Source: Patescibacteria group bacterium (GTDB lineage: Bacteria; Patescibacteriota; Patescibacteriia; UBA9934). Taken from it: DNA of 64,000 nucleotides. The notes beneath the pieces are model-generated. The model worked only from the letters and a program-made list of their open reading frames with translations, ran no database searches and was not told the origin of the DNA. The stretch is from contig JBBTSM010000005.1 in assembly GCA_038064675.1 (NCBI GenBank), forward strand, positions 4,686 through 68,685, in the 5' to 3' direction. Of the stretch, positions 3,854 through 59,920 are shown one piece after another (position 1 is the first letter of the stretch; every line of letters starts with the position of its first letter). Made by a program: the position numbers and the translations under genes.

Positions 3854-3942
3854 GATCGACGACGTACCAGGAAGTACGTCTTGACGATCCTGCCTCGGTT
3901 GCGCACCGAAACTGGTCTGAAATGAAAGCGTTCTCGTCATAC

Positions 3943-4212
3943 TTATGTTGTTGGATAGAGCTGCGCACCCGTATCCACATCAAAAACCGTAATTGCAAGC
4001 GTTGGGCACGACTGTGCTCCAAGAATGATGTTTTGCATCTCATCTTCCGTCGCCTCCATAATGCGTTCGTACGCTGGAGCGCCTTCGGCAACGCCGTGGT
4101 CGATAACCTCAGCCTTGTTCTCCGTATTCATCACAAAAGTGTCTGGAGCAATCGTTACACAGCTCGCCGCACCAATACACAGGTCTGGATCGACCACGAT
4201 TCGAAGCTTCAT
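3943..4212 (-). CDS. ferredoxin (single [4Fe-4S]/[3Fe-4S] type)
   Basis: MKLRIVVDPDLCIGAASCVTIAPDTF ferredoxin motif; ATG at 4210-4212; adjacent to FAD oxidoreductase. Confidence 0.7.
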   Translation of the reverse strand: MKLRIVVDPDLCIGAASCVTIAPDTFVMNTENKAEVIDHGVAEGAPAYERIMEATEDEMQNIILGAQSCPTLAITVFDVDTGAQLYPTT

Positions 4213-4254
4213 AGATGGCAACAGGATAGCGAAAATCCCCGTGAAGCGCAAAAA

Positions 4255-5400
4255 CTACCGCATCTTCTCCAGAATCTCCCGAACCGCTGAGATTGCTCGA
4301 TCAATATCGGTCGCCGCAGTTGATCGGCCGAGGGAAAATCGGATACTTCCACCGATGCGGTCGGCAAATAATCCAAGCGCAGCAAGAACATGACTCGGCT
4401 CCGATCCTCCTTTACATGCCGATCCGGTAGAGGCAGCAATTCCTGCTGCGTCGAGGCGCAACACAAGCTCTTCACCCTCAATTCCATCGAACGCGACATT
4501 TGCATTGTTTGGCAAACGACGAATGCGATCGCCGTTTAATGACGTCCCACGGATTTCGAGGAGTCCCTCGATCAGCCGCTCACGAAGCGGCAACAATCGA
4601 CTCGACTCGCGATCTCGCATTGCGACAGATTCGGAAAGCGCCGACGCAAATCCAACAGCTCCGGCGATATTCTCGGTACCAGGCCTACGACCAGATTCCT
4701 GCTTTCCGCCACCGAAGACTGAGCCCCACGGCGCATTTCGTCGAATATACAAGGCTCCAGCGCCCCTTGGTCCGTACACTTTCGGGCTTGAGAGCGTCAA
4801 AAAATCAACGTGAAGCGATTCGACATCGATCTCCAGATAGTTCGGCGCCTGACTCGCATCGGAATGAAAGAGCGGATATACCGACCCACGCTTCTTTCGC
4901 CACGCATCAATCGCCTTTCCAATGTGATGAACGTCGTGAACAACACCAATCTCATTATTCGCCATCATCACCGACACCAACACCGTATCATCACGAAGTG
5001 CGGCGACAATCGCATCTGCGTCAACGTGCCCGCGTTCATCGACGGGAATAATTGTCACATCAGCTCCGGCTGCATGAATCGCGCCAAGAACAGCGGCGTG
5101 CTCTGTTGCAATGGTGACGACGTGTTTTCCCCGCATGAATCCAGCCTTCAGCGCTCCAAACACCGCGAGATTGATGGATTCTGTCGCACCGGAAGTCAGA
5201 ACGATCTCATCACCATGCGCAACAATACATTTTGCAATCGATTCGTGGGCGGCGCGAAGAATGCTCGCAGCCTGCACGCCCTCCGTATGTAAACTCGAAG
5301 GGTTTCCCCATACTCCAGTGAGGATTGGTTCCATCGCCATCCACGCCGTGGAAGAAAGTGGCGTTGCGGCAGCGTAATCAAGGTAAATTCGATCAGGCAT
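4255..5400 (-). CDS. iscS: cysteine desulfurase (IscS/NifS family)
   Basis: 381 aa; LTSGATESINLA, SSPKVYGPRGAGALYIRR, C-terminal active-site GSACKGG. Confidence 0.85.
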   Translation of the reverse strand: MPDRIYLDYAAATPLSSTAWMAMEPILTGVWGNPSSLHTEGVQAASILRAAHESIAKCIVAHGDEIVLTSGATESINLAVFGALKAGFMRGKHVVTIATEHAAVLGAIHAAGADVTIIPVDERGHVDADAIVAALRDDTVLVSVMMANNEIGVVHDVHHIGKAIDAWRKKRGSVYPLFHSDASQAPNYLEIDVESLHVDFLTLSSPKVYGPRGAGALYIRRNAPWGSVFGGGKQESGRRPGTENIAGAVGFASALSESVAMRDRESSRLLPLRERLIEGLLEIRGTSLNGDRIRRLPNNANVAFDGIEGEELVLRLDAAGIAASTGSACKGGSEPSHVLAALGLFADRIGGSIRFSLGRSTAATDIDRAISAVREILEKMR

Positions 5401-14558: not shown

Positions 14559-15692
14559 CTACTGCCTGATAGGCATCACGATGTAGAGATATTTCTCATC
14601 GGGAAGATTATGCGGAGTAACGACGCACGGTTGCATGGCATCGATGAACTTGAGAACAATCTTTTCCGACGTCATCGCATTCACGCCATCGAGAAGATAA
14701 CGGAAGTTCAACACAGCTGAGTTTACGTTTCCGGTCATTTCCCCCTCAACCGTGACCGTGTTCTCGCCGCGACCAACGTCGGCCGCAGAAAGCGTGACGG
14801 TTTTTTCGGCCGGGTTCGCCTCGAGACGCACGTCGAACAATCCAGCCTTCGAGAACAGGCTCGTTCGACGAATGGCCTGGGAAAATGCCGTTTTATCAAT
14901 CGTAATCTCTGTTGCCGACGTTTTGGGGATAATCTGTCGATAATCTGGATAAACACCCTCAACCGTACGAGATGACAACTCGACGGTTCCGTAACGGAAC
15001 ACAATCTGACTTTCAGTAAGCTCGACGTCAATATTTTCTGGATTTTCCACGCTGTCGCGAAGCACGCTCAAGATTCGTCGAAGTTCTCCGAGCGTTCGCG
15101 ACGGCACAATTGCCTTCCGCTCGCCTTCCGCAGCTTCGCCAAGTGCGATCGTCTTTTCTCCGAGACGATAGCTGTCTGTCGCGGCAAGGACGAGTTGCTT
15201 ATTGAGCCCGTCAAAGTGCATGAACACACCGGTAAGCGCTTGTCGTGCCTCGTTCGTCGCAACAGCAAAGAGCACTTGGCTGAGCGCCGAATCAAGAGCC
15301 GCGGCAGGAACGACAAATCGAACACCGCCAGTGACCGGTGGGATTAACGGGAATTCGTTTGCGGGAATCCCATTAATCTTCGTCTTTGTTTTTTCGCAGA
15401 CAATCGATACCGCGTGGTCGAGAAGATCGAGATCAACTCTTTCGTTTGGCAAAAGGGCAACGTAATCCGCAAAGAGTTTTGATGGAAGCGTGTATTCTCC
15501 TGGCTGGTCGACCTTCCCTCGGATCGTGCACGTAATCGTCAACTCAAGATTCGTTGCGGTGAGTTTGATTCCTCCAACGTCTGCCCGAAGCAAAACATTG
15601 TTCAGAATAGGAAGGTTCGTATTCTTTCCAGAGATGTGACTCGTAATAGCCAGACCCTGGTATAAATTTTCTCGCGTGCAAGAGAGCTTCAC
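14559..15692 (-). CDS. dnaN: DNA polymerase III beta sliding clamp
   Basis: downstream of dnaA; N-terminus with GTG start gives MKLSCTRENLYQGLAITSHISGKNTNLPILNNVLLRA, the canonical DnaN start; ORF extends to 15869. Confidence 0.85.
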   Translation of the reverse strand: MKLSCTRENLYQGLAITSHISGKNTNLPILNNVLLRADVGGIKLTATNLELTITCTIRGKVDQPGEYTLPSKLFADYVALLPNERVDLDLLDHAVSIVCEKTKTKINGIPANEFPLIPPVTGGVRFVVPAAALDSALSQVLFAVATNEARQALTGVFMHFDGLNKQLVLAATDSYRLGEKTIALGEAAEGERKAIVPSRTLGELRRILSVLRDSVENPENIDVELTESQIVFRYGTVELSSRTVEGVYPDYRQIIPKTSATEITIDKTAFSQAIRRTSLFSKAGLFDVRLEANPAEKTVTLSAADVGRGENTVTVEGEMTGNVNSAVLNFRYLLDGVNAMTSEKIVLKFIDAMQPCVVTPHNLPDEKYLYIVMPIRQ

Positions 15693-15980
15693 AATCAGGA
15701 AATTAATATCTCTATAAGAACCAGTAGTAACAGTAAGGGGTGTGTATGAAGTGGATAACGACGGAATGCTATGAGCAAAGAGCGAATTGAGCGAATTGAG
15801 CGAGGGATAGAACGTGTGGACGACGGTGATGAGCGTGGAGATAACTTCAGCGAATCGTTTGGCTGACATTTCTGTCCCCTTGTTATCCTACCCGTTTCCC
15901 CAGGGAACTCCACCCACTCGTCCACTGCTTTTTGCACCGTTCATCCACAATTCACAGGGAAGTACCCTTCTGTCCCCATG
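15693..15980. promoter_or_regulatory. dnaA-dnaN intergenic region with DnaA-box-like motifs (second oriC module) and 3x tandem 9-mer GAGCGAATT
   Basis: AGTGGATAA (1 mm), TCATCCACA (1 mm), TTATCCTAC, TTATCCCGC; tandem gagcgaattgagcgaattgagcga at ~15779-15805. Confidence 0.45.
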
Positions 15981-17369
15981 TTATCCCGCATAGAGTTTTT
16001 GTTTGATGAGTTCAAGATCTTTCTGGAGCTTTTCGTCGGTTTTTACGAGATCGGAGATCTTTCCATATGCATGCATTGCTGTGGTGTGATCTCGTCCGCC
16101 GAGCTCGTCTCCAATTGCTGGATACGACGTTTTCATTTCCTCTCGCATGAGATACATGATGATTTGTCTTGGGAATGCGAGTTTCTTTTCGCGGGATTTT
16201 CCGAGGATGTCCTCAATGGTGATATCGAAGTATTCGGAGACGATAAGAATCAACTGGCGCGGTGTAACAGTTTTGCGAACGTTTTCCGATTCGAAGCTTG
16301 CGATGATTGGTTTTACCGTTTCAAGCGTTGGAGAGATGTTGCGGAACTGATGGATGGCGATGATTTTATTCAGTGCACCCTCGAGCTCACGGATGTTCGA
16401 GTAGATGTTGCTCGCAACATAGTGAAGAATCTCGCGATCGAGGGAGAACGACTTCTCCATACACTTGCGCTGAAGAATCGCGATGCGTGTTTCGAGGTCT
16501 GGCATCCCGACATCCACAAGCATTCCCCACTCAAGGCGGGACTGTAGACGTTTTTCAAGACTGGTGATGGATTTTGGTGGGCGGTCGGACGAGATGACAA
16601 TCTGACGCTGTTCTTGATGAAGCGCGTTGAAGGTGTGGAAAAATTCTTCCTGCGTTCCTTCTTTACCAGTGATGAATTGAATATCGTCGATGAGGAGGAG
16701 GTCGACATTGCGGTAGCGATCTTTGAATTCCTTTCCTTTACCGGAACGAATGGCATTAATGAAATCGTTCGTGAATCGCTCACAAGTGACATACAGAATG
16801 CGAACATTTGGATTGCGACGACGCATTTCGTTGGCGATGGCGTGAAGAAGATGTGTTTTTCCGAGTCCGACGCCGCCGTAGATAAAGAGAGGGTTGTATG
16901 CCTGTCCTGGTTGTGCAGAGACGGCTTGTGCCGCGGCGTGAGCGAGTTCGTTTTGCTTTCCAACGACAAATGTCTGAAAAGTGTATTGTGGATTGACGGT
17001 GATTGTGCCTGTTCCGCCGGTTTCTGCGCTTCCTGTCGCGACGAATCCGTAATCTTCGGCTCCTTCTTTTGGTGCAACAGGCTTCTTCTCCTCGAGAAGA
17101 AGTGGCTGTGGGGCCTCGGTGCGCGTTGCGACGCGATACGTAAGGCTGCGAACGGCTTGGTTTGTGATTCCCTGGATTGTTTCTAGGATATCTCGGTGAT
17201 GTTTCTTGCTGATCCACTGCTGGGTGATGGTGTTTGGGACGCCAATAACTACTTCGCCGTTGTGGTAGTCGCTCACAAAGGTTTTTCGAAACCATGTTGT
17301 GAAATGGGCTTTGCTCACTTTGAGCTCCATTTCCCCCAAGACTGCCTCCCAAAGCTCGTGTGTATTCAT
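15981..17369 (-). CDS. dnaA: chromosomal replication initiator protein DnaA
   Basis: AAA+ GVGLGKTHLLHAI, LLIDDIQF, C-terminal DnaA box-binding domain; N-terminus MNTHELWEAVLGEM at ATG 17367-17369 (ORF opens with TTG at 17441). Confidence 0.9.
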   Translation of the reverse strand: MNTHELWEAVLGEMELKVSKAHFTTWFRKTFVSDYHNGEVVIGVPNTITQQWISKKHHRDILETIQGITNQAVRSLTYRVATRTEAPQPLLLEEKKPVAPKEGAEDYGFVATGSAETGGTGTITVNPQYTFQTFVVGKQNELAHAAAQAVSAQPGQAYNPLFIYGGVGLGKTHLLHAIANEMRRRNPNVRILYVTCERFTNDFINAIRSGKGKEFKDRYRNVDLLLIDDIQFITGKEGTQEEFFHTFNALHQEQRQIVISSDRPPKSITSLEKRLQSRLEWGMLVDVGMPDLETRIAILQRKCMEKSFSLDREILHYVASNIYSNIRELEGALNKIIAIHQFRNISPTLETVKPIIASFESENVRKTVTPRQLILIVSEYFDITIEDILGKSREKKLAFPRQIIMYLMREEMKTSYPAIGDELGGRDHTTAMHAYGKISDLVKTDEKLQKDLELIKQKLYAG

Positions 17370-17441
17370 AGGTATTGCGGCAGGTGGTGATGGGCTTAGG
17401 GATTCGTTGAGGGGCGTGAACTTCGGAGGCATCATAGTCAA

Positions 17442-17783
17442 TTATCCACAGCTATGAAAGGTTGCGATATTGGCTAAAAGTGGATGACTTTGGGGATAAG
17501 TGCGTAAAAAGTGGGGACAACTGACGATGTTATACACATTTTTCGTGGGAATCTGTAAAAAAAGATTTTGCGACGCCGTGTGGATGGAGAGGAATTGATC
17601 GATCGGCGAGTACGTCTTGAGCGAGCGCTGAGCGCGAGCGAATTGGGTGAGTGAGGGGGCTGCTCTCCTCCGTCGCTCAATTTGCTCAAGGCGGTAATCC
17701 GCCGGTCGCTCGCGCGTAGCGCTCGCTTAAATACTCAAAATCCATTGACATGGTATGCTTGTGGGCGTAAAGTCTTGCCACTT
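17442..17783. promoter_or_regulatory. predicted oriC (dnaA upstream region) plus divergent dnaA and rpmH promoters
   Basis: perfect DnaA box TTATCCACA at 17442-17450; further 1-2 mismatch boxes (TTATCCCCA, TCATCCACT, TTGTCCCCA, TGTGGATGG); AT-rich stretch 17526-17570; conserved rnpA-rpmH|dnaA-dnaN synteny. Confidence 0.6.
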
Positions 17784-18575: not shown

Positions 18576-18806
18576 TTACGAATCGATTCCGAGGATTTCA
18601 ACCAATTTTTTCTTGCCGCTACTTCCCTGTTTGATCACAATCGATTTCTGCGGGACGTGAAAATGTTTCGAAAGCAGTCGAACAAGCTCCTCATTCGCTT
18701 TTCCGTCAACTGGAGCTGATTTCAAGCGGGCGACAAGTGAATTGTCGCCATTCTCCTGGATCTCGGACTTTCCCGAGTTCGGCTTTACGCTGATTGTGAT
18801 TTTCAT
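18576..18806 (-). CDS. DUF167/YggU family protein
   Basis: 76 aa; VKPNSGKSEI...APVDGKANEELVRLLSKHFHVPQKSIVIKQGSSGKKKLVEI. Confidence 0.6.
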   Translation of the reverse strand: MKITISVKPNSGKSEIQENGDNSLVARLKSAPVDGKANEELVRLLSKHFHVPQKSIVIKQGSSGKKKLVEILGIDS

Positions 18807-19246
18807 ATGCGAATCTTCTCAATCGAATCAATAGTAATCCAGGCGGCCATTGCGCCGAATCCTGTCTTGTTGATCGCAAATGGAGTGATCGATTCTGCAC
18901 GATTGAGTTCGATGAGAATCCCGTGCGTTTTTTTCTCCACAAGTGGTCGAAGAACAGAAATATCGAGTCCGATGGGTGGCGCAAGAAGCGGCAATCGAGC
19001 GTCAAGAAAATCTTCATCTATCGATTCAATATATTCCACGGCACCCACGATCGCCTTTGCAGCGATGGGCTCTCCAGCGTATTTGAAATAGACGGTATCG
19101 CCAACGCTCACCTTCTTCCATGGCGCAGAGTGATTCTTGAGCCAACGTGACTCGATCGTCTTCTCGCCGGAAAGAATCTTTTCAATCATTCCTAACTCTT
19201 TGGAACTCGGACGCTTCATTGGATTCATGATCGCGACGTGGTCCAT
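18803..19246 (-). CDS. ASCH-like domain protein
   Basis: 147 aa; IEKILSGEKTIESRW...VGDTVYFK pattern resembling ASCH/PUA-like fold; weak. Confidence 0.4.
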   Translation of the reverse strand: MDHVAIMNPMKRPSSKELGMIEKILSGEKTIESRWLKNHSAPWKKVSVGDTVYFKYAGEPIAAKAIVGAVEYIESIDEDFLDARLPLLAPPIGLDISVLRPLVEKKTHGILIELNRAESITPFAINKTGFGAMAAWITIDSIEKIRI

Positions 19247-19247
19247 A

Positions 19248-20051
19248 TTAGCTCAGGTTACTTGTTGTTGCTCGTGGTGCGCTTTGCCACAGCATTTCAA
19301 AAACGCTTTTCATCATTGTTGCGATGACGTCATCTTCGATCCGGATTGCGAGCAAATTTTCTGGTTGCCAGAAGATCACCTTGTCTGCGAAGAAATGAAA
19401 CGACGCCTTGAACGGGTTGAGTCCGTTGAGAATTCGCGTCTCTCGCATGTTTTCTTTGTCTTCTCCGGCGATTCGGTTTGCGTGTTGTCCGGAAAGCGTA
19501 AGTGTTCGCGATGATAAGCCGCGTCTCACCCTCTCTTTGAGATATTCGGCTTGATCCTCGGGAGCAATGAGATTTAGAAAATCATCAACCGAACCAAAGA
19601 AGTCCAAACTATCCTTTCCCTCATCCAACATCCCAAAGAACGCACCAATGTATTGCCCTCGGCCTTGATACACACGAACGTGGCTTGGTAAATCGCCTCT
19701 TTGATATTTGCTTAGTAAATCTGGAAGTAGCGATGAAAATTCTTGTTTCAATTCACGATCTTTCTTTTGCTTCAGGTCGAGGAGCTCATTCACGATCGTT
19801 GGCGACGCCACACTAAACCGCTTCAACCTCCCCCCTTTTGGCAGTGCCGCGAGCCCGATATTTTCTAGGCTTTTAATGAGTTTATAGATATTTGGCCGTG
19901 AAACACCGAGCTTTTCCGCAATTTGCCCGATCGGATGCGGTCCAATCTCTAGCGACAATACATAGAGTCCAGCCTCCTGTGCCGTCAATCCCAATTGCAA
20001 AAGCGCCGTGTAAAGCGCTGAGCTCTCATTTTTGTTTGATTTTGCGGCCAT
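19248..20051 (-). CDS. TrmB-family HTH transcriptional regulator (paralog 1 of 4)
   Basis: 267 aa; N-terminal wHTH LQLGLTAQEAGLYVLSLEIGPHPIGQIAEKLGVSRPNIYKLIKSLENIGLA, C-terminal TrmB-like domain. Confidence 0.75.
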   Translation of the reverse strand: MAAKSNKNESSALYTALLQLGLTAQEAGLYVLSLEIGPHPIGQIAEKLGVSRPNIYKLIKSLENIGLAALPKGGRLKRFSVASPTIVNELLDLKQKKDRELKQEFSSLLPDLLSKYQRGDLPSHVRVYQGRGQYIGAFFGMLDEGKDSLDFFGSVDDFLNLIAPEDQAEYLKERVRRGLSSRTLTLSGQHANRIAGEDKENMRETRILNGLNPFKASFHFFADKVIFWQPENLLAIRIEDDVIATMMKSVFEMLWQSAPRATTSNLS

Positions 20052-20108
20052 AGAATGTTTTATATGTATAGACTAAGTATACACTAAAACTATATATATA
20101 GTAAAAGA

Positions 20109-20137
20109 TTGATTTAAGTGTAATAATCTGGTATAGT
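20109..20137 (+). promoter_or_regulatory. sigma70-like promoter for 20203 gene
   Basis: TTGATT-17 nt-TATAGT; AGGAGA Shine-Dalgarno at 20190-20195. Confidence 0.45.
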
Positions 20138-20202
20138 ACTTTGTTCGGATGTGAGACGAAAGTCCGCCGAGCGATACAGAAACCCAAGCAGGAGACACTC
20201 TC

Positions 20203-20694
20203 ATGATCTATCTCAACCAAATTCGTGGATCGGCTGTAAAAATCATCAGCGATCTTGCTCGCGACGCGGCTCTCCCAGGAAAGCTTGAAGTCGAAGAAAA
20301 TCGGTTCATGCGATGGGAGGGTTATGGGGAGAAGAATTGGCGCTACAAGGCGGGGAAAAACTATGAGCTTGTTGATACTAAGGTCCCCGTGCTCACTCGA
20401 GACGGATACACCGCGCCTCCAAAAAAATTGACCGCTGGGTGGGACCTGTCGGTTGACGACAATAACTGCGTTTGGGCTCGGCCGGTGTGTGCTGGTTGGG
20501 GTAACGCGTATTTTCGCGATCACGGCCCCGAGCTTGTACGGATTATCGGGAAAATTCCGGAACGCTTGCGCAAATTCTTGTCAGCCGAAGAGAGTCAGTT
20601 CCTCTTCTTCTGTTGCGGACAGTTCGGTGAAGTGTATGCGCTCGAGTCGGAGGTTCTCGTGTTTCGTAATAGGCTGAAGGAAATGTTCGGGTAG
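20203..20694 (+). CDS. hypothetical protein (163 aa), cargo of TrmB-like module 1
   Basis: ATG with strong SD; no recognisable domain. Confidence 0.5.
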   Translation: MIYLNQIRGSAVKIISDLARDAALPGKLEVEENRFMRWEGYGEKNWRYKAGKNYELVDTKVPVLTRDGYTAPPKKLTAGWDLSVDDNNCVWARPVCAGWGNAYFRDHGPELVRIIGKIPERLRKFLSAEESQFLFFCCGQFGEVYALESEVLVFRNRLKEMFG

Positions 20695-20746
20695 TTCGCT
20701 GCGGCTTCAGAAGAAAACAAAACATAATCACCATTCGGAGTTCAAC

Positions 20747-21007
20747 ATGATTCTCTTCCAGAAAGACGGAGCTGTTCTTGTCAACGCGTTCTCAAGTGTC
20801 GAGGAATTCCGTGAGTGGGTGGCGATGGCTGGTGATGAACCGGTGGAGATCGCCTACGAGATGAAAATGCCGGGGACGGCTGCCGGTAATGCATTACTGA
20901 GCTTGTGTCGGATCGGAAATCATGACGCGGACGGGTTCGAGGTTCTTTTGGAGAATCTCCTCAGCGAAGCATTCCAGGCCGGTATTAACTTCGCACAACG
21001 GAAGTGA
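20747..21007 (+). CDS. hypothetical protein (86 aa)
   Basis: co-directional with 20203 gene; ATG start. Confidence 0.4.
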   Translation: MILFQKDGAVLVNAFSSVEEFREWVAMAGDEPVEIAYEMKMPGTAAGNALLSLCRIGNHDADGFEVLLENLLSEAFQAGINFAQRK

Positions 21008-21059
21008 GCAACAGCGACAAAAACGCGCAGCCGCTCCTGGAGGAGCGGCTGTTGTTGTT

Positions 21060-21917
21060 TTACTTCATCGCCTTTCGAAACTTCTTGAGTAGCGCAATGT
21101 CTTCTTCGCGACTTCCCTTTTCTTCTTCCCCATCGAACGGTGTTTCGAGAATGAGATCGATATGCTGGAGTTTTGGATGTTGGACGATGTATTTGAATGC
21201 GTCCGCGCCAATGAAGCCGTGGCCGAGATGCTGGTGACGGTCTTTGTGTCCGTCGAATTCGATTTTTGAATCGTTACAGTGTGATGCGACGAGCTTCTTG
21301 AGGCCGATGATGCGGTCGAAATCCTTAAATGTTTGATCGACGGCTTCTTTTGTTCGTAGATCGTACCCCGAGGCGAATGCGTGTTGCGTGTCGAAACACA
21401 CACCGATTTCTTTTCCACGTTTTGCGCCGTCGATGAATGCCGCGATCTCTTCGAATTCATCGCCCATCACTGCGCCGGCTCCGGCGCTGATCTCAATGAG
21501 GAGCTGACAGCTTCCTTCGTAGCCATCCATGATGCGGTCGAGCCCCTTAATTACGGCCTCGACTCCGGCTTCCTGGCCGACCTCTTTTGCTGACCCTGGA
21601 TGAAACATGATTGCCTTCGCGCCGAGCTGTGTGCCGCGCTCGAGCTCCTCACGAAGAATTTTTACTGATCCGAAGCGCGTCGTGTTTTTTTCGGAAGCGA
21701 GGTTGATGATGTACGGCGCGTGAATGTACACGTCTCTAATGTCGTTCTCCTTCATCGATTCCCGAAACTTTGTCGCGTCCTCGTCACTTATCGGTTTTGC
21801 AGCGAACGCTTGCGGAGAACGAGAAAAGATTTGGATCACTTCACACCCAAGTTTCTTCCCCGCCGGTCCCGACTTCCACAATCCCCCGGCCGCACTCACG
21901 TGAGCTCCAAATTGCAT
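21060..21917 (-). CDS. nfo: endonuclease IV (AP endonuclease, xylose-isomerase-like TIM barrel)
   Basis: 285 aa; AHVSAAGG, IHAPYIINLAS, FHPGS, metal-binding H/D/E pattern LETPFDGE. Confidence 0.85.
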   Translation of the reverse strand: MQFGAHVSAAGGLWKSGPAGKKLGCEVIQIFSRSPQAFAAKPISDEDATKFRESMKENDIRDVYIHAPYIINLASEKNTTRFGSVKILREELERGTQLGAKAIMFHPGSAKEVGQEAGVEAVIKGLDRIMDGYEGSCQLLIEISAGAGAVMGDEFEEIAAFIDGAKRGKEIGVCFDTQHAFASGYDLRTKEAVDQTFKDFDRIIGLKKLVASHCNDSKIEFDGHKDRHQHLGHGFIGADAFKYIVQHPKLQHIDLILETPFDGEEEKGSREEDIALLKKFRKAMK

Positions 21918-21921
21918 AGCA

Positions 21922-22677
21922 TTATGATAATTGTTTCCAAGAAAGCTTAAACATCATTTTCATCACAGAAGCGATGGCCTGGTTCTTAATGAGTGTACCG
22001 AATATCGGCGCATCTGTGGAAATAAGTGCTACCTTGTCGTTCCAAATGAGAATGTCGACAGCGATGTCTTCTGTGCCTTTTGGGAACATTCGCATGTCGT
22101 AGAGTCCTCTGAGTAGCGCGATTGGAGTTTTTGCGCTTGTTTCCGGAGAATCTTGAGTGAGAATGTCATGAAGGACAATTCCTCGCTCTTTCATTTTTGC
22201 AACGTACTTTTTAAAGAAGTCCCAACCGAGCGCATCGTAGAGTTTCTTTGTTGACGCCACGCCATACACGCTTTTTGCCTCAAGCATCTCGTAAAAGATT
22301 TCTTTGACTTGCTCAGCACCTTCGAAATATTTGATAACGGGCTTGTTTGCTTGTGCCGCGTAAAGGCCGCGAAGATCGGGTAATATTTGCCGCATTTCTT
22401 CGGTTCGGTGTTCGAGGACTTGTACAAGGACTGAGGGGTCGATTGTGATGTATGCTTTTCGACTGCCCTTCCGTTGTTCATCGATGAGTCCTCGTTCTCT
22501 GAGTGTTTGTAGGGAGCCGTAGAGATTCGGTCGAGAGATTTTTGTTCCACGCGCGATTTGGGGCGGCGTCGTTGCTCCGTGTTCAAGAACGTAAAGATAG
22601 ACACGAATTTCGTTGTCTCGAAGTCCGGAATTTTTAAGTGTTCTGACAATATGTTCCATATGATATGGAGTGATCAT
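21922..22677 (-). CDS. TrmB-family HTH transcriptional regulator (paralog 2)
   Basis: wHTH RVYLYVLEHGATTPPQIARGTKISRPNLYGSLQTLRERGLI; start ambiguous (ATG 22677 or 22659; ORF opens 22788). Confidence 0.7.
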   Translation of the reverse strand: MITPYHMEHIVRTLKNSGLRDNEIRVYLYVLEHGATTPPQIARGTKISRPNLYGSLQTLRERGLIDEQRKGSRKAYITIDPSVLVQVLEHRTEEMRQILPDLRGLYAAQANKPVIKYFEGAEQVKEIFYEMLEAKSVYGVASTKKLYDALGWDFFKKYVAKMKERGIVLHDILTQDSPETSAKTPIALLRGLYDMRMFPKGTEDIAVDILIWNDKVALISTDAPIFGTLIKNQAIASVMKMMFKLSWKQLS

Positions 22678-22831
22678 ATCATAAGTGTATTGGAAACAAT
22701 AAACGAAATAAAATTGTAGTGATTGGAGAATGTAATGATATGTATCAATTGTGTTTGAGGTGCTATGATCATCGGTTGGCTCGCGCATTTCGCGTGGCCA
22801 AAATGATATTTAAGTAGCACAGGAGAAAAAA

Positions 22832-23267
22832 ATGATCGGTGCTTCGGTCTGGGATCTTGAAAAACTTCTGAGGGAACGAAATCCCTCACTGCGCAAGAAG
22901 GATGAGGTGCTGATTCATCAATCCCCTTCCATTCTGCGAATCGTGACGAGTCTCGTTGATACGGGCGTTGATCGATGGGAGATCCCCGCTCGTCTTTGTG
23001 GGGAATGTGAGCGTACGCGTTTCAGGGAGCACGTCTATCAGTTACGCGCGGACGATGCCGTTTTACCCAGACTCGATCGAGCGTGTCGACGTTTCGCAAC
23101 AGGGCTCTCCTCCCCGAAAGGAATGGAGGATCCGCGGCTTTCTTCACGGAGACTGCGACATCCTCGAGCTTCTATTCGCCGAGTCCCCTGAACGTCCGTT
23201 CTGGGCGGAGTTCGTTGCGATGATTCGTGACGACGGGCGGGGTCGACTGGAAATCGTATCTCGCTAA
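22832..23267 (+). CDS. hypothetical GC-rich ORF(s), probably one gene with internal frameshift (22832..23191 / 22956..23267)
   Basis: SD AGGAGA before ATG 22832; reading frame changes between 22956 and 23191; about 58% GC versus about 48% flank; hairpin + T-run at 23271-23316. Confidence 0.35.
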
Positions 23268-23316
23268 AAAAAATGAACCGAGCCCATGGGGTTACGCCCG
23301 GAAGCTCAGTTTTTGT

Positions 23317-24078
23317 TTAGCTCTCTAGTGATTTCCAAATTCCACTAAATAATTGTCGCAGATTTTCTGCCATCATCGCGTCGTGGATTTCGATGAGAGA
23401 AAATGGATGATGTCTTGTGTTGATCATTACGATGTAATTTCCCATCACCCACGTTGTCGCCGTAAACGCTGCCGCGCCGCTCCAAAAGCGAATGTGACGC
23501 TTTGCATAGCCCTTTGTTTTCATGAGTTCTTCGACATTCGACTCATTACTAAGAAGTCGAACGATTGGCGGGTTCGATTCTTGCCAGTACCATTCAATCC
23601 ATTCTTGAAAATGTTCGACGAGACCCGGATCCTGGAATCCCCAATAATGTGTTTTGGTTTCGATGATACTTTTATTCCAAGCCGGTGTTTGTTTATAGAG
23701 ATGACTTTCGATTTCTTCTTCCGGAATAAAAACGATCTTTGGAATCGAATATTTCGAACTTTGTGCAATTTTCTTGAGCTCACCGATCGCAGACTGCACG
23801 GTCGCTTTTTTGAGGTCGAGCGCTTTTTGCTCGCGGTTCACGAGAATGGCGAGATCTTCGGGTTGCTTTGCGATGAGTGATCGTGACGAACCGCCGAGAT
23901 CTTCGACGACAACACCCTTTTTTACGAGTTCTTTGGATACGCTATACACCGTCGGCCGGCTAATCCGCGTGAGTTTTGCGATTTCCGCTGGTGTCATTGC
24001 CCCGTGCTGAAGCAGAGCGAGATACACCTCGCTTTCCTTGTCGCTGAACCCCAATTTTCCCAGAACTTGCTTTGACAT
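23317..24078 (-). CDS. TrmB-family HTH transcriptional regulator (paralog 3)
   Basis: MSKQVLGKLGFSDKESEVYLALLQHGAMTPAEIAKLTRISRPTVYSVSKELVKKGVV; ATG at 24076-24078. Confidence 0.7.
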   Translation of the reverse strand: MSKQVLGKLGFSDKESEVYLALLQHGAMTPAEIAKLTRISRPTVYSVSKELVKKGVVVEDLGGSSRSLIAKQPEDLAILVNREQKALDLKKATVQSAIGELKKIAQSSKYSIPKIVFIPEEEIESHLYKQTPAWNKSIIETKTHYWGFQDPGLVEHFQEWIEWYWQESNPPIVRLLSNESNVEELMKTKGYAKRHIRFWSGAAAFTATTWVMGNYIVMINTRHHPFSLIEIHDAMMAENLRQLFSGIWKSLES

Positions 24079-24273
24079 CCCCACATTCTATCCCCAATGT
24101 GGACAAGTTGTCAATAACTCATCAACAGTAGGAATAGCTTTATATAATGGGCTTTATATGAATACTAAGCCCACAACTTATGGACAGAAAGGCGGTTTTT
24201 CGATATCGTAACCCGTTCGAGAGTGATCGCCGATCTCCGGCAGGAAACTCGAACGCGCTTTCAAAAGGTGCCC

Positions 24274-24543
24274 ATGCTCACTCTCCTCTCCTCCATCGCC
24301 CTCGCCGATCCCTTCGTCCTCATCGGATCCGAGAATCGGGTCGATCTCGGCGGAAATGTCGTTCCGAAGGCCAAGGCGATCGTCGACATCGGTGTGATCG
24401 ACCATCTCTCATTGACGGCGACGTTCGTGGTGTCGCCGGGATACAGCGAGGTGTACGTTGGCCCCACCTGGTCGCCGACCGCGCACTTCTCCCTCGGCGT
24501 GGCCGGCGCGGCATGGAAACTGCGGACGATCCGTGGCGCGTGA
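24274..24543 (+). CDS. hypothetical GC-rich small protein with signal-like N-terminus
   Basis: MLTLLSSIALADPF...; stop TGA overlaps next ATG (TGATG); about 63% GC. Confidence 0.35.
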   Translation: MLTLLSSIALADPFVLIGSENRVDLGGNVVPKAKAIVDIGVIDHLSLTATFVVSPGYSEVYVGPTWSPTAHFSLGVAGAAWKLRTIRGA

Positions 24544-24806
24544 TGGCCTATTCGACGGCGAACTACAAAAGCCTTCATATCCTCGGAGTGGTGGAGTACG
24601 GCGGAAGCGGGCTCTGGTATAAGGCGGTCGCTTCCTACACGATCGGTCCGGTCTCGATCGGCGCCATGGCACAGCGATTCGATGGCCTCGGCCCGCGCAT
24701 CGCCGTGTCGCGCTGGGATCTCGAGCTCTGGGCGGCGCCGCTGTACGACCCGGAGGCGAAGTCCCCGAGCTTGCTCGTCGGCCTCAGCTGGACGCCGAAG
24801 ACGTGA
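24543..24806 (+). CDS. hypothetical GC-rich small protein (87 aa), coupled to previous ORF
   Basis: MAYSTANYKSLHILGVVEYGG...; beta-strand rich; may be one frameshifted gene with 24274..24543. Confidence 0.35.
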   Translation: MAYSTANYKSLHILGVVEYGGSGLWYKAVASYTIGPVSIGAMAQRFDGLGPRIAVSRWDLELWAAPLYDPEAKSPSLLVGLSWTPKT

Positions 24807-24823
24807 GTGGCGATGAAAACAAC

Positions 24824-24867
24824 GGCCGAGTTCGCGGAGCAATCTGCGGGCTCGGCGCTTTTGTTAT
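24824..24867. terminator. 44-nt hairpin + T-run repeat (copy 1), bidirectional terminator
   Basis: ggccgagttcgcggagcaatctgcgggctcggcgcttttgttat; 39/44 identical to 26480-26523. Confidence 0.5.
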
Positions 24868-25604
24868 TTCTCCTTGGCAAATTCCCACGCCATCGCAAAA
24901 ATGGACTTCTGGGTTTCGTAAATTGCACCATCGTGGATCAAAATCCCCCCGTACGGCGCTTTATGCGACATGATCGCAACCTTCCCATCGTAAATTTTTA
25001 TCTCATTGGGCATCGCGAATGTTTCTGAAACGAGTCGGACATCGCGAAGCTCATCATGACTTGTTTTAAGAAAGCGTTTTCCGACGGTTCCCGCATTTAA
25101 CACGGCACGCGTCCGAACGCCTGCGGCAACGCGCCTGCGAATGTACTCATCATAATATTCCGCAAGATTCGCGACGATCATATCCGCGTCCCCAAACGTC
25201 AAAATAGTTTCTCTGGCCGTCAGTGTATCGTCGAGCACCGTTTTAATCCCCTCAATCCCAGGGAAATACTGTACTCGTGGCTGCTTTGCGCTCGCGCGTC
25301 CATTAAGTGCACGAAAATCTGGTAATGCATTTCTCAATTCTCTCACCGATTGTTCCGCGTGTTTCAAAACCGTTTCCGGATCTTTTGCATAAAAAAGTTG
25401 TGTTCCATTTACATCCGTGGACCCTACGAGTCCCTTTTGCTCCATTGCTTTTAAATACACATATGTCGTGGAGCGATTCATTCTCGTCTTCTTCGCAATT
25501 ACGCTCGCCGGAGCCTCCCCCAGTTCGGTATTTGCCACATACAACGCGGCCTCTTCTTCAGAGAATCCGAGCTTCTGCAAAACGTCTCCAAAAGAAATCG
25601 CCAT
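24864..25604 (-). CDS. TrmB-family HTH transcriptional regulator (paralog 4)
   Basis: MAISFGDVLQKLGFSEEEAALYVANTELGEAPASVIAKKTRMNRSTTYVYLKAMEQKGLV; ATG at 25602-25604. Confidence 0.7.
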   Translation of the reverse strand: MAISFGDVLQKLGFSEEEAALYVANTELGEAPASVIAKKTRMNRSTTYVYLKAMEQKGLVGSTDVNGTQLFYAKDPETVLKHAEQSVRELRNALPDFRALNGRASAKQPRVQYFPGIEGIKTVLDDTLTARETILTFGDADMIVANLAEYYDEYIRRRVAAGVRTRAVLNAGTVGKRFLKTSHDELRDVRLVSETFAMPNEIKIYDGKVAIMSHKAPYGGILIHDGAIYETQKSIFAMAWEFAKEK

Positions 25605-25796
25605 AGTTGTTAGAAATACAAACAGTATAAAATATAATAGATATAATGTAAATAGCACTTATAAACACATTCTATCAATAATATGTTATTGAAACAAACC
25701 AAGAGATATGGTATCGTGTTCTGTTGGGATGACGGAGGGCATCTCGCTCAACGCACCCGATGAACACCACGGGCCGACACGCTCGGCACGGAGTAA

Positions 25797-26479: not shown

Positions 26480-26523
26480 GAGCCGAGTTCGGGGAGCAAT
26501 CCTCGGGCTCGGCGCTTTTGTTA
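26480..26523. terminator. 44-nt hairpin + T-run repeat (copy 2)
   Basis: agccgagttcggggagcaatcctcgggctcggcgcttttgttat. Confidence 0.5.
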
Positions 26524-27021
26524 TGCGGATTCAAAACCGATTTTGTTTTTCTTCGATTCGTCATCAATCGTCTGTCGCAATGCGTCGAACACGATTTTGA
26601 ATTGCTCGTCGTATTGTTTTTCTAGGAAGTCGATGCGCAGGCGGAGATCGGAATGTTCGAGCGCCATGTCTCGAAGATAGACGAAGGCACGAATAATTTG
26701 AATGTTTACCGCAATAGCTTTTTCGCTACTCAAAACACTCGAAAGCATAGCAATGCCGGATTCGGTAAAGGCTCGTGGCGGGTATCGAATCCCTCCCCAA
26801 CTTGAGGTCGCAAATTGCGACCTCAAGTTGAAAAACTCCTTCTCTGTAAGCCGAAATGAGAAATCCTCTGGAAATCTGCGTAAGTTTCTCTGAACGGACT
26901 CGTTGAATCTTTTGGTTTCGATTTTGTATAATTTTGCCAAATCACGATCAAGCATCACTTTTTGTCCTCGAAGAACAAATATTTTGTTTTCGACTATTTC
27001 TATCGGAAGAATCATTGCCAT
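26521..27021 (-). CDS. ORF6N (KilA-N-like) domain DNA-binding protein
   Basis: IFVLRGQKVMLDRDLAKLYKIETKRFNESVQRNLRRFPEDFSFRLTEKEFFNLRSQFATSSWGG matches ORF6N family hallmarks. Confidence 0.75.
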   Translation of the reverse strand: MAMILPIEIVENKIFVLRGQKVMLDRDLAKLYKIETKRFNESVQRNLRRFPEDFSFRLTEKEFFNLRSQFATSSWGGIRYPPRAFTESGIAMLSSVLSSEKAIAVNIQIIRAFVYLRDMALEHSDLRLRIDFLEKQYDEQFKIVFDALRQTIDDESKKNKIGFESA

Positions 27022-28129: not shown

Positions 28130-29419
28130 CTACTTCACCATTGCTGCCATGATGTGATCAACAACTGCACGATTTCTCATTTGGGATTCTACGAAGTCGC
28201 GGTATTCGGGTTCGTATACACGAGCGCGGTTCTCGTTGTCGTCGCCAAGGCGGTCGGCGATCACATCGAGCTCGGCATCGACGGCCTTTGCGTCAACGTC
28301 GATGTTCTCTTTTTTGCCGATTTCGCGAATGATGAGCGCGACCTTCACGCGGGTTAATGCGGTTGGGGTGAAGTCAAGTTTGGTTTCGGCGATGGTTTTC
28401 CCGATGGACTTGAGATAATCCTTCAGCTCCATGCCATTTTCGCCAACGGAGTGTTCAAGTTCACGAATCATGCGCTCGAGTTCCTGGTTTACGAGAATGT
28501 CGGGAATAACATCAAATTCAGATTTCTGTGCAAGGAGATCGAGACATTCGCGCTCTTGGCGACGACGTTCCTCAACAACGCTTTCTGCGGCGAGATTTTC
28601 TTTAAGCTTTTCCTCAAGCATCGATGCGCTTTCAAATCCGAGACGTTTTGCGAACTCCTCATCGATTTCTGGAGTTTCGATGGTAAAGATTTCGTTCAAA
28701 CGAACAGTGAAATCCACATCGTTATCTGCAAGGTGCTTTTGGTAGTGATCTTTTGGAAACTTCAGCGTGAATGATTTCTCTTCGCCTTCTGCAAGACCAA
28801 GAATCTGCGTGACGAAACCGTCGATGTAGTGCGCTTCGGTGGTGTATACGCCATGGTTCTGGCTTTCGCCGCCCTCAAGAACAACACCATCTTTCTTCAT
28901 TGTCAGGTTCACGACCGCCTTGTCGCCTTGCTCCAGTTTCTTTCCGGCTGTGGCACGGGTCTCCTTTGTTTGCATGCGAGCGAGATCTTTCTTTGCAGTG
29001 TCGATAATTTCCGGCGTTGGTTCCGTTGGCTTCCGTTCAACAGTGAGCTTTGTGTAGTCTGCGAGCTTTTTCACCTTCGGCATGAGCCCAATGTCGGCGC
29101 TGTAGATAAGGTCCTCGCCAGGAATCATCACGTCCATGGTGAAATGCGGTGCGCCAACGATGTCGAGATCTTCTTCGATGAGTGCCGATGCAAGCGATGC
29201 GCGAATGAGCTCCTCGGCGGCTTCTTCAAGGATTTTTATTTCCCCAACGCGCTGTTTCACCACCTCGTAGCTTGCGGCTCCTGGGCGGAATCCTGGGAAG
29301 TTCATCACGCGAGACAGTTCGTCTGCGGCAACGTGCATTGCAGCAAGGACTTTGTCTTTTGGAACAACGACAGTGATTTTGATCTGGTTATCGGCAACGT
29401 GTTCGATGGTGTGCGACAT
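28130..29419 (-). CDS. tig: trigger factor (ribosome-associated chaperone/PPIase)
   Basis: 429 aa; N-terminal ribosome-binding GFRPGAASYEVVKQR-type motif (trigger-factor signature), central FKBP-like, C-terminal arm. Confidence 0.9.
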   Translation of the reverse strand: MSHTIEHVADNQIKITVVVPKDKVLAAMHVAADELSRVMNFPGFRPGAASYEVVKQRVGEIKILEEAAEELIRASLASALIEEDLDIVGAPHFTMDVMIPGEDLIYSADIGLMPKVKKLADYTKLTVERKPTEPTPEIIDTAKKDLARMQTKETRATAGKKLEQGDKAVVNLTMKKDGVVLEGGESQNHGVYTTEAHYIDGFVTQILGLAEGEEKSFTLKFPKDHYQKHLADNDVDFTVRLNEIFTIETPEIDEEFAKRLGFESASMLEEKLKENLAAESVVEERRRQERECLDLLAQKSEFDVIPDILVNQELERMIRELEHSVGENGMELKDYLKSIGKTIAETKLDFTPTALTRVKVALIIREIGKKENIDVDAKAVDAELDVIADRLGDDNENRARVYEPEYRDFVESQMRNRAVVDHIMAAMVK

Positions 29420-59783: not shown

Positions 59784-59920
59784 CCGCACACAACAACGAC
59801 GCAATCGCGCCCCGCAACGGGCGCGATTGTTCTCTTTTCTTTAAAACCAATCGCGACCCGAATCTCCGAGGAGATCCGGGTCGCTTTCGTCGTGGCGTTG
59901 TCACCGTCAGGTCACCGGAA

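Follow-up and report, generated by a model that had tools for sequence, protein, structure and literature searches.

We analyzed a 64,000-nucleotide stretch of DNA from a Patescibacteria group bacterium (lineage UBA9934; GenBank assembly GCA_038064675.1, contig JBBTSM010000005.1, forward-strand positions 4,686 to 68,685), referred to here as the window, from an uncultured groundwater host that belongs to the Candidate Phyla Radiation (CPR). The window carries an array of four genes for TrmB-family regulators (R1 to R4), each of which faces short plus-strand open reading frames (ORFs), here called cargos (C1 to C4), across a promoter region of 150 to 190 bp. The gene order through this region is dnaA, rpmH, rnpA, yidD, a PF1765-like gene, p147, R1, C1a, C1b, nfo, R2, C2, R3, C3, R4, C4, an ORF6N gene, a gene with an HMUDK_hel domain, and tig. 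A preliminary description, made from the sequence alone, had pointed to four TrmB-like genes on the minus strand and to divergent cargo ORFs facing each of them. Both are present: the regulators span 19248-25604, with a winged helix above the Pfam cut-off in each, and the cargo ORFs lie where that description had placed them.

All four regulators are encoded on the minus strand, and their N-terminal winged helix-turn-helix passed the gathering cut-off of the Pfam TrmB family (PF01978, 25.6 bits). R1 (267 amino acids [aa]; 19248-20051) scored 35.7 bits, R2 (245 to 251 aa; 21922-22677) 51.5 bits, R3 (253 aa; 23317-24078) 56.2 bits, and R4 (246 aa; 24864-25604) 41.9 bits. A 288-aa version of R2 starting at 22788 was rejected as an over-extension; the ortholog in a related contig (L093) and one gene call start near 22659. 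No further TrmB-like copies were found elsewhere in the window. R1, R2, and R4 align with one another over their full lengths at 21 to 27% identity, and R3 aligns at full length with R4 only; because mutual identity is this low, the regulators are deep paralogs and not recent duplicates. Each has orthologs in other genomes at 72 to 92% identity. The R1 ortholog lies at the same site in L095 (77.5% identical) and the R2 ortholog at the same position in L093 (72.7%), while R3 orthologs occur in eight loci (70 to 88%) and R4 orthologs in L086, L090, and L091 (88 to 92%). The ratio of nonsynonymous to synonymous substitution rates (dN/dS) of the regulators is 0.03 to 0.08 (about 0.03 for R4), indicating strong purifying selection. 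Their composition is host-like (45 to 48% GC), and they diverge roughly in step with core genes. Collectively, the mutual identities, the orthologs, and the dN/dS values exclude recent duplication; the preliminary description had suggested duplication as one way in which the array was built.

To place these proteins within the family, we compared a profile of ten such regulators with the solved archaeal TrmBL2 (PDB code 5bpd). Profile positions 9 to 245 aligned with TrmBL2 positions 12 to 263 (E = 1.4e-10), collinearly up to a C-terminal F...W motif, and the winged helix supplied most of the score. The array proteins thus share with the TrmB family of the Thermococcales (TrmB, TrmBL1, and TrmBL2; PF01978) an N-terminal winged helix-turn-helix above the cut-off and, at about 250 to 265 aa, a layout collinear with TrmBL2. 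They differ in having no sugar-binding subdomain of the kind found in TrmB and TrmBL1 (proteins of about 340 aa), for which 246 to 267 aa is too short; in scoring only 12 to 33 bits against the NCBIfam TrmB, TrmBL1, and TrmBL2 equivalog models, whose cut-offs are 500 to 650; and in C-terminal similarity that is not significant by itself. We file R1 to R4 as TrmB-family proteins with a putative TrmBL2-like layout and an unproven C-terminal homology. As with classical TrmB, each regulator gene adjoins the genes it presumably controls. Unlike the Thermococcales proteins, those of the array occur in a bacterium, with several deep paralogs side by side in one hot spot, and their targets are small, mostly uncharacterized genes rather than operons for sugar transport or glycolysis. 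R1 is the probable first gene of an operon: p147 follows 1 nt after it and is in turn overlapped by the PF1765-like gene (18576-20051 for the three). R2 ends 4 nt before nfo and probably forms one operon with it (21060-22677). Since R1 and R2 thus probably head operons with core genes, they may control more than their divergent cargo.

C1, divergent from R1, consists of two ORFs, C1a (163 aa; 20203-20694, plus strand) and C1b (86 aa; 20747-21007, plus strand). C1a is a hypothetical protein in a singleton cluster, and its GC content at the three codon positions (0.58/0.40/0.58) is host-like and coding-like. Among 1.84 billion representatives it had no detectable relative apart from itself and one weak HEAT-repeat match, which we judged not meaningful (E = 7e-4 over 34 residues). 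In the family search, C1b gave only an insignificant match to SseB_N (E = 0.084). C2, divergent from R2, comprises two overlapping plus-strand frames (22832-23191 and 22956-23267); the codon-position GC pattern switches frame between about 22950 and 23100, gene finders call the 119-aa frame only, and no homolog was found in any of the related loci compared. C2 represents either one frameshifted gene or a pair of short genes, and it is probably disrupted in the window. C4 (25797-26459, plus strand) encodes a lineage-specific, fast-evolving protein of 220 aa with a long N-terminal helix. Only four homolog clusters were found in 5.8 billion proteins, each adjoining an R4 ortholog, and C4 is 47 to 71% identical to its homologs where R4 is 88 to 92% identical. 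Its dN/dS of 0.21 to 0.37 indicates that C4 is a real but fast-evolving gene. An AlphaFold2 (AF2) model from four sequences was poor (predicted local distance difference test score [pLDDT], 43). The preliminary description had noted a coiled coil plus a cysteine cluster in one cargo; the cysteine cluster of C4, kept in one of three homologs and absent from two, was rejected as a conserved metal site. None of the cargos matched Pfam, NCBIfam, PHROGs, or PADLOC. In PADLOC-DB, the regulators touched only the helix-turn-helix parts of the Csa3/CasR models, at E values of 1e-5 or weaker.

C3 (24274-24806, plus strand) is a frameshifted copy of a 176-aa signal-peptide protein, present as ORFs 24274-24543 and 24543-24806 that meet at a TGATG junction. 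DNA alignment revealed a 2-nt GC insertion at about 24506-24507, which leads to a stop at 24541-24543 and makes the window copy a pseudogene or split gene. Both frames carry very strong codon-position signals. The frame disruptions and the TGATG overlap had been recorded in the preliminary description, and the same bases are found in other assemblies. Four assemblies are base-identical to the window over the shared stretches and a fifth differs by 6 bases (the matching assemblies include Hainich aquifer samples and the NCBI metagenome-assembled genome GCA_964357295.1), indicating that the disruptions are not assembly errors. When repaired, C3 matches 20 clusters of full-length proteins (174 to 208 aa) at 54 to 79% identity and 93 to 100% query coverage, together with one partial, possibly chimeric match. 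A predicted 250-aa protein on a 938-bp ENA contig (P0025) has a TrbL/VirB6 domain (PF04610; E = 5e-12) at its N terminus and, behind it, the C-terminal half of a C3-type barrel; the fusion may be genuine, or the call on this short contig may be chimeric.

The predicted structure of the C3 family is that of a membrane β-barrel. An AF2 model of the closest intact homolog (P0005; pLDDT, 89.4) has a short hydrophobic N terminus followed by 12 β-strands, and its top Foldseek matches are all transmembrane barrels: KdgM, NanC, OmpG, the invasin β-domain, and a designed 12-strand barrel. TM-scores to KdgM, NanC, the designed barrel, and the invasin β-domain are 0.57 to 0.65 (KdgM, 0.60/0.61). The closed, antiparallel 12-strand barrel is seen in the predicted model only. 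Thus, the earlier view that the cargos have no recognizable domains holds at the level of sequence-domain matches, and C3 nonetheless has a predicted fold. The family shares with the KdgM/NanC porins and the invasin β-domain 12 predicted antiparallel strands and an N-terminal hydrophobic, signal-like segment. It differs from these porins in lacking the terminal aromatic β-signal (the protein ends in ...LNWTPKM) and any sequence-family match (P0005 has no Pfam match and no sequence membership in the KdgM/NanC family), and the window copy is frameshifted. It also differs from known 12-stranded outer-membrane barrels in its host; the Patescibacteria are generally regarded as a phylum without an outer membrane. 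Because the family consists of signal-peptide proteins predicted to form 12-stranded barrels, C3 is likely an envelope or host-interface protein.

A consensus scan identified back-to-back promoter-like sites in the intergenic regions between regulators and cargos. In the divergent control region of R1 and C1 (20052-20202), a candidate R1 operator, the palindrome TGTATA-N7-TATACA (20065-20083), lies over the R1 -10 box, and a similar palindrome, GTGTATAT-N5-ATATACAC, adjoins the R1 ortholog of L095. The C1 promoter-like site, TTGATT-17-TGnTATAGT with an extended -10 (20109-20137), is followed by an AGGAG Shine-Dalgarno sequence, in agreement with the promoter and ribosome-binding site noted earlier at one cargo, and a 5' stem-loop lies at 20144-20171. 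The R3 promoter-like site, TTGACA-18-TAGAAT (24114 to 24085, minus strand), matches 11 of 12 consensus positions; with 7 nt between the end of its -10 box and the ATG, it probably gives a leaderless R3 mRNA. On the opposite strand, the C3 promoter-like site (24181-24209) directly precedes the leader. The divergent region of R4 and C4 (25605-25796), whose conservation in four genomes extends as far as the Shine-Dalgarno sequence, contains an R4 promoter-like site (25652 to 25624, minus strand), a C4 site with an extended -10, TTGAAA-17-TGnTATCGT (25689-25717), and a 5' stem-loop (25724-25761) in which an outer-stem A-U pair is replaced by G-C among the four genomes. With promoters placed in this way, each cargo transcript would begin with a stem-loop.

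The structured 5' leader of the C3 mRNA (24215-24254, plus strand) is 40 nt long and has two helices, and its internal loops (AGUGAU and AGGAAA) do not vary. In an alignment of eight sequences, 94.8% of cells were paired, with three compensatory pairs. Copies occur in L091 (3051-3094), L093 (7939-7982 and 15277-15320), L095 (7944-7987), and L097 (2550-2593). The leader goes with either the R3 regulator or a C3-type cargo and not always with both: it is present in L091, where the cargo is another ORF, and before a second C3 copy in L093, where the regulator is another one. It could be a cis-regulatory RNA, an mRNA-stabilizing 5' hairpin, or a transcribed operator. An Rfam scan of 18.5 to 28.2 kb at E values up to 5 gave two chance snoRNA matches and no family matching the leader. 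A covariance model of the C3 leader retrieved only the sequences from which it was built, indicating that the R1- and R4-type leaders do not belong to the same RNA family.

The 3' ends of the modules are marked by hairpins. A bidirectional terminator follows C1b (21027-21052). A type-2 bidirectional terminator hairpin (23276-23319, plus strand; AACCGAG...CTCAG plus a T-run) ends in a TTA that forms the R3 stop codon, and its homologs lie 3' of unrelated cargos in L091, L097, and L120. Two copies of a type-1 bidirectional terminator bound the R4-C4 module: copy 1 (24825-24867, plus strand) is its left boundary repeat, with a TTA that is the R4 stop codon, and copy 2 (26482-26524, plus strand; 93% identical) contains the stop codon of the ORF6N gene. 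Across the loci, one hairpin terminator family ends unrelated cargos (C3, C4, methyltransferases, and several proteins without a Pfam match). The outer stem and tail of the hairpin (GCCGAG...CTCGGCGCTTTTGTTAT) are conserved, and covariation is seen in the inner stem. Whichever gene converges on the hairpin (R4, R3, ORF6N, or Fic) takes its stop codon from the final TTA of the tail. The tail, GCTTTTGTTAT(T/G), and the A-run before and T-run after the stem are terminator-like. Matches to the 18-nt tail numbered 21 in metagenome contigs, 19 of them without a hairpin and 2 in similar hairpins on contigs of 63% GC; none of the 21 lay by relatives of the TrmB genes or cargos.

The array lies close to a probable replication origin. 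Cumulative GC skew reaches its minimum and turns at about 15 to 16 kb, beside dnaN (14559-15869) and dnaA (15981-17441), with rpmH, rnpA, and yidD coming after dnaA; the origin is probably near 14559-17700. The turn in GC skew thus places the array 2 to 10 kb from oriC. On the left, the main variable site begins at nfo (21060-21917, minus strand; PF01261), which encodes an AP endonuclease 2 and is 86 to 97% identical in relatives, standing at the left border each time. A smaller second site, between p147 and nfo, contains R1 with its cargo. The earlier placing of nfo within the array was right as to position, but the gene does not belong to the array: it is a conserved core gene with an insertion site on either side. 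To the right of C4 lie the ORF6N anti-repressor-like gene (26521-27021, minus strand; PHROG 4792, E = 6e-27), a gene whose product carries the helical domain of the phage enzyme 5-hydroxymethyluracil DNA kinase (HMUDK_hel, PF18723; 27147-28109, plus strand), and, following the latter, the core gene tig (28130-29419). ORF6N, HMUDK, or both stand at the right border in most relatives; L122 has neither.

To determine how the interval varies, we used DnaA as an anchor and a few cargo homologs as probes, and recovered the same interval from twelve other CPR lineages. Between dnaA-rnpA-yidD-nfo and tig, ten related CPR contigs carry from one to at least five modules, and two more distant relatives (L001 and L003) carry none. 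The window has R1, R2, R3, and R4. L086 has one module (R4 only), as do L121 and L122 (R3 only in each); L091 has two (R4, then R3); L095 has three (R1, R264, and R3), as does L090; and L093 has at least five (R2, R3, R264, R249, and a weak fifth). L120 and L097 carry R3-C3, and their contigs stop short of nfo, so that their module counts are incomplete. Three paralog lineages seen in relatives (R255, R264, and R249) are missing from the window. The window, L091, and L120 each have an arrangement of their own, although their trigger factors are 95 to 96% identical. The R4-C4 module in particular is a 1657-bp indel between the two type-1 terminator copies, and L120, which has a single copy, is without exactly that module. 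The suggestion that the region is accessory is thus upheld: both the number and the identity of modules differ among relatives at the same chromosomal site.

Within modules, the homology of orthologous copies spans the regulator, the intergenic promoters, and the 5' stem-loop, and it ends just before the cargo start codon. R1 faces C1a and C1b in the window and a methyltransferase in L095; R2 faces C2 in the window and a different, 159-aa ORF in L093; and R3 faces C3 in seven genomes and another ORF in L091. R4 is paired with C4 in four loci, and in L086 and L090 an extra ORF stands between the R4 leader and C4. One TrmB paralog of 255 aa in L090 is divergent to an argininosuccinate synthase gene (argG; 2896-5030 for the pair) that is AT-rich (42% GC), unlike the GC-rich cargos elsewhere. 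In a distant CPR genome, Candidatus Doudnabacteria (L004, MFEY01000007.1; 4171-7799), two TrmB-like genes lie at a distance of 3 to 6 kb from dnaA. Facing one of them is a gene for a DUF2798 membrane protein, with a BrnT/BrnA-like toxin-antitoxin pair after it; facing the other is a 220-aa ORF. Because the layout recurs there, a TrmB gene divergent to a small gene near the origin may be widespread in the CPR. The closest DnaA relatives in the species-level collection, L001 and L002 (63% and 56% identity), are labeled "uncultured Gammaproteobacteria"; gene order and similarity place both with the CPR lineage, and the labels look wrong.

Cargos and regulators differ in composition. Against a window mean of 51% GC, the cargos reach 58% in C2b, 64 to 65% in C3, and 57% in C4, so that the atypical composition ascribed to them earlier stands for these three; C1, at 52 to 53%, is ordinary, and the background is 51% and not the 48% that had been assumed. 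GC content at third codon positions (GC3) is 0.82 to 0.84 in C3 and 0.65 in C4, compared with 0.38 to 0.62 in the regulators and about 0.4 to 0.7, mostly near 0.5, in core genes. Nearly every relative examined has a cargo GC3 of 0.64 to 0.84; the exceptions are argG in L090 and the 159-aa ORF in L093. For C3, GC3 stays at 0.72 to 0.83 even in L121, whose trigger factor is 57% identical, and C3 diverges roughly in step with R3. Since high GC3 persists across diverged relatives and C3 tracks R3, the high cargo GC is a long-maintained property. The reading of the cargos as recent foreign imports is accordingly set aside, GC3 of the C3 and C4 homologs being 0.64 to 0.84 in every relative. Cargo dN/dS is 0.16 to 0.37, and the rate of synonymous substitution (dS) in cargos, 0.55 to 1.1, is lower than in the adjacent regulators (at least 1.3 and often saturated), which fits either codon constraint or more recent exchange.

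A second GC-rich patch lies at 58302-61111 (62 to 66% GC), with no TrmB gene beside its two ORFs. The first encodes 493 aa (58302-59783, plus strand), with a lipoprotein-like N terminus and, by eye, sulfatase/alkaline-phosphatase-like motifs; the second encodes 396 aa (59921-61111, minus strand), with a signal-peptide-like N terminus and a GC3 of 0.86. Neither matched NCBIfam. Codon bias of highly expressed genes was considered as a source of high GC3 and rejected: the GC3-rich 396-aa ORF is not EF-Tu or a member of a named family, and tig, dnaA, and rnpA have ordinary GC3.

Starting from the anatomy, homology, variability, selection regimes, frameshift, and predicted fold described above, we infer repression, ligand sensing, a recombination mechanism, and cargo functions as follows. 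We consider it somewhat more probable than otherwise that the interval bounded by the core genes p147/nfo and tig is a hot spot of recombination and is filled with autoregulated repressor-target modules. In each module, the TrmB-family gene would be transcribed leftward from the intergenic promoter, and an extended -10 promoter in the same region would drive the cargo rightward. The cargo mRNA would carry the stem-loop leader at its start and the hairpin terminator at its end, the terminator also serving the convergent gene downstream. A dimer of each regulator would bind operators in its own intergenic region and repress both itself and the facing cargo; release would come with a signal that the C-terminal domain senses. 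The units of regulator, promoters, and leader are old, conserved, and host-like, and the ORFs behind them small, lineage-specific, GC3-rich, fast-evolving, and subject to replacement. Modules would most likely be gained, lost, and reshuffled by homologous recombination, with the conserved regulators and the terminators of about 45 nt common to unrelated cargos as substrates. In the window the array is partly decaying, with C3 broken by the 2-nt insertion and C2 probably disrupted.

Several observations weigh against this proposal. The C-terminal regulator profile alone has no relative in the PDB, and the C-terminal half aligns only weakly, if collinearly, with the TrmBL2 C terminus (hhalign E = 1.3e-3; probability, 19%). 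The operators remain candidates, and since the palindromes overlap promoter hexamers, their conservation may reflect the promoters alone. The fixed place of the convergent stop codon within the terminator tail is a possible sign of site-specific events instead of homologous recombination, and a recombination hot spot leaves the persistently high cargo GC3 across diverged hosts unexplained. Two of the four window cargos look disrupted. Finally, all of the relatives are metagenome contigs, and some arrangements could be population variants or misassemblies; for the window itself, recurrence of the arrangement in five assemblies counts against misassembly.

Two alternatives involve mobile elements. 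An integron-like process, in which ORFs are inserted behind resident promoters by a recombinase encoded elsewhere, with the 3' hairpin and possibly the 5' leader hairpin as recombination sites, would suit several features: a 3' hairpin that unrelated ORFs have in common, conserved in its outer stem and tail; the TTA of its tail as the stop codon of the convergent R4, R3, ORF6N, or Fic gene; two hairpin copies around R4-C4; and a break in homology between leader and start codon. Integron arrays likewise consist of serial small, often uncharacterized ORFs, each with a conserved imperfect hairpin at its 3' end, and can hold a module between two hairpins. Unlike integrons, the TrmB array has no IntI tyrosine recombinase: no integrase domain was found among the called genes of the window region or the 12 related loci, and the sole recombinase-type gene in these roughly 12 loci is an IS1595 transposase in L097. 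The tail GTTAT(T/G) misfits the integron core GTTRRRY, each cargo has a promoter and regulator of its own, as integron cassettes do not, and the hairpin has an A-run before and a T-run after it, as in a plain bidirectional terminator. Given also that 43 nt at 93% identity suffices for ordinary homologous recombination, cassette capture appears improbable to us. We regard as very unlikely a prophage or integrative element remnant, whose repressors would be the TrmB genes and whose accessory (moron) genes would be the cargos. The atypical cargo composition and the flanking ORF6N anti-repressor-like (PHROG 4792) and phage-type HMUDK_hel genes are what such a remnant might leave, but it would have to do so without an integrase, a border tRNA or att site, or structural or replication genes. 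No tRNA gene lies nearer than those at 9.9 kb and 40.7 kb, scans of 2.9 million viral contigs found neither the terminator nor the leader motif, R4 was unmatched in 50,697 phage records, and C3 was unmatched in a plasmid collection. The regulators, moreover, are host-like in composition and diverge roughly with core genes.

Other alternatives concern what the regulators silence. BrxR/CapW-type winged-helix regulators sit upstream of varied defense systems, and the array shares with the islands they lead a conserved DNA-binding regulator combined with interchangeable cargo. The cargos could by analogy be toxins, immunity proteins, or anti-phage effectors held silent by dedicated repressors. Their rapid turnover, the few or no detectable homologs and Pfam domains of most of them, the pairing of C1a with C1b, the Fic and methyltransferase genes of relatives, the BrnT/BrnA-like pair beside the TrmB-like genes of Doudnabacteria, and the phage-like ORF6N and HMUDK_hel neighbors would all be at home in a conflict island. 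Yet the array regulators are TrmB proteins and not of the winged-helix-WYL type, no cargo has a known defense match (none in PADLOC or PHROGs), C3, which is kept more widely than any other cargo, is predicted to be a membrane barrel and not a nuclease or NTPase, the cargo of one relative is argininosuccinate synthase, and two cargos are disrupted here with no sign of regulator loss. We therefore think a defense island rather unlikely. A silencing role of a different kind is suggested by TrmBL2, the best solved match, which is a chromatin protein and global repressor of the Thermococcales (PMC3031468, PMC4877046). Regulators of this type could be nucleoid-associated silencers that coat DNA, variants of which silence compositionally unusual genes, and the cargos are indeed consistent compositional outliers. 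Each paralog is nevertheless tied to one neighbor (R3-C3 in seven loci and R4-C4 in four), and once the winged helix is left aside, TrmBL2 is no nearer to the regulators than other TrmB proteins are. In addition, known bacterial xenogeneic silencers act on AT-rich and not GC-rich DNA. Chromatin silencing is, on this balance, quite improbable.

Hot spots for horizontal gene transfer (HGT) flanked by core genes are a general concept of comparative genomics, and the array resembles them in its core borders (nfo/p147 and tig), content that changes between close relatives, orphan genes, and atypical composition. It differs in the high regularity of its unit (regulator, divergent promoter, leader, ORF, and shared terminator) and in that the regulators are old residents while their partner ORFs change. 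In a full-text literature search, no paper named both TrmB and the Candidate Phyla Radiation, and TrmB was also absent from the top-ranked papers for Patescibacteria and related groups; HGT and genomic islands in Patescibacteria have been described in general terms (PMC12455944). Regulators of the TrmB family, hot spots for HGT, and variable islands led by a regulator are kinds already known. What is unusual is the occurrence of several deep TrmB paralogs in one origin-proximal CPR hot spot; a constant unit of regulator, promoters, and leader with interchangeable ORFs, its module boundaries marked by a terminator common to unrelated cargos; the persistently high cargo GC3; and a conserved family of predicted 12-stranded barrels in a phylum to which no outer membrane is usually attributed.

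More speculatively, and with little confidence, we suggest that this CPR lineage keeps a platform for gene exchange by its origin, in which TrmBL2-like repressor, promoter, and leader "docks" and the shared terminator are fixed joints between which small GC3-rich genes are swapped, including secreted 12-stranded barrels that could enter the membrane of the host cell. If so, the episymbiont would gain a regulated and rapidly changing set of host-interface or conflict proteins, and the GC3 excess would be a by-product of frequent recombination, through GC-biased gene conversion, or of a private gene pool. Apart from this suggestion, the locus shows that high GC3 in an island can be a long-lived gene property and not a mark of recent import, a caution for composition-based island calling, and it points to a conserved family of predicted membrane β-barrels in a phylum thought to be without an outer membrane. 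The three near-identical genomes with three arrangements are a natural experiment in module turnover. Almost nothing is known of gene regulation, or of variation in surface and host-interaction genes, in Patescibacteria, and the locus offers a compact, repeatable unit that is directly open to binding assays and metatranscriptomes.

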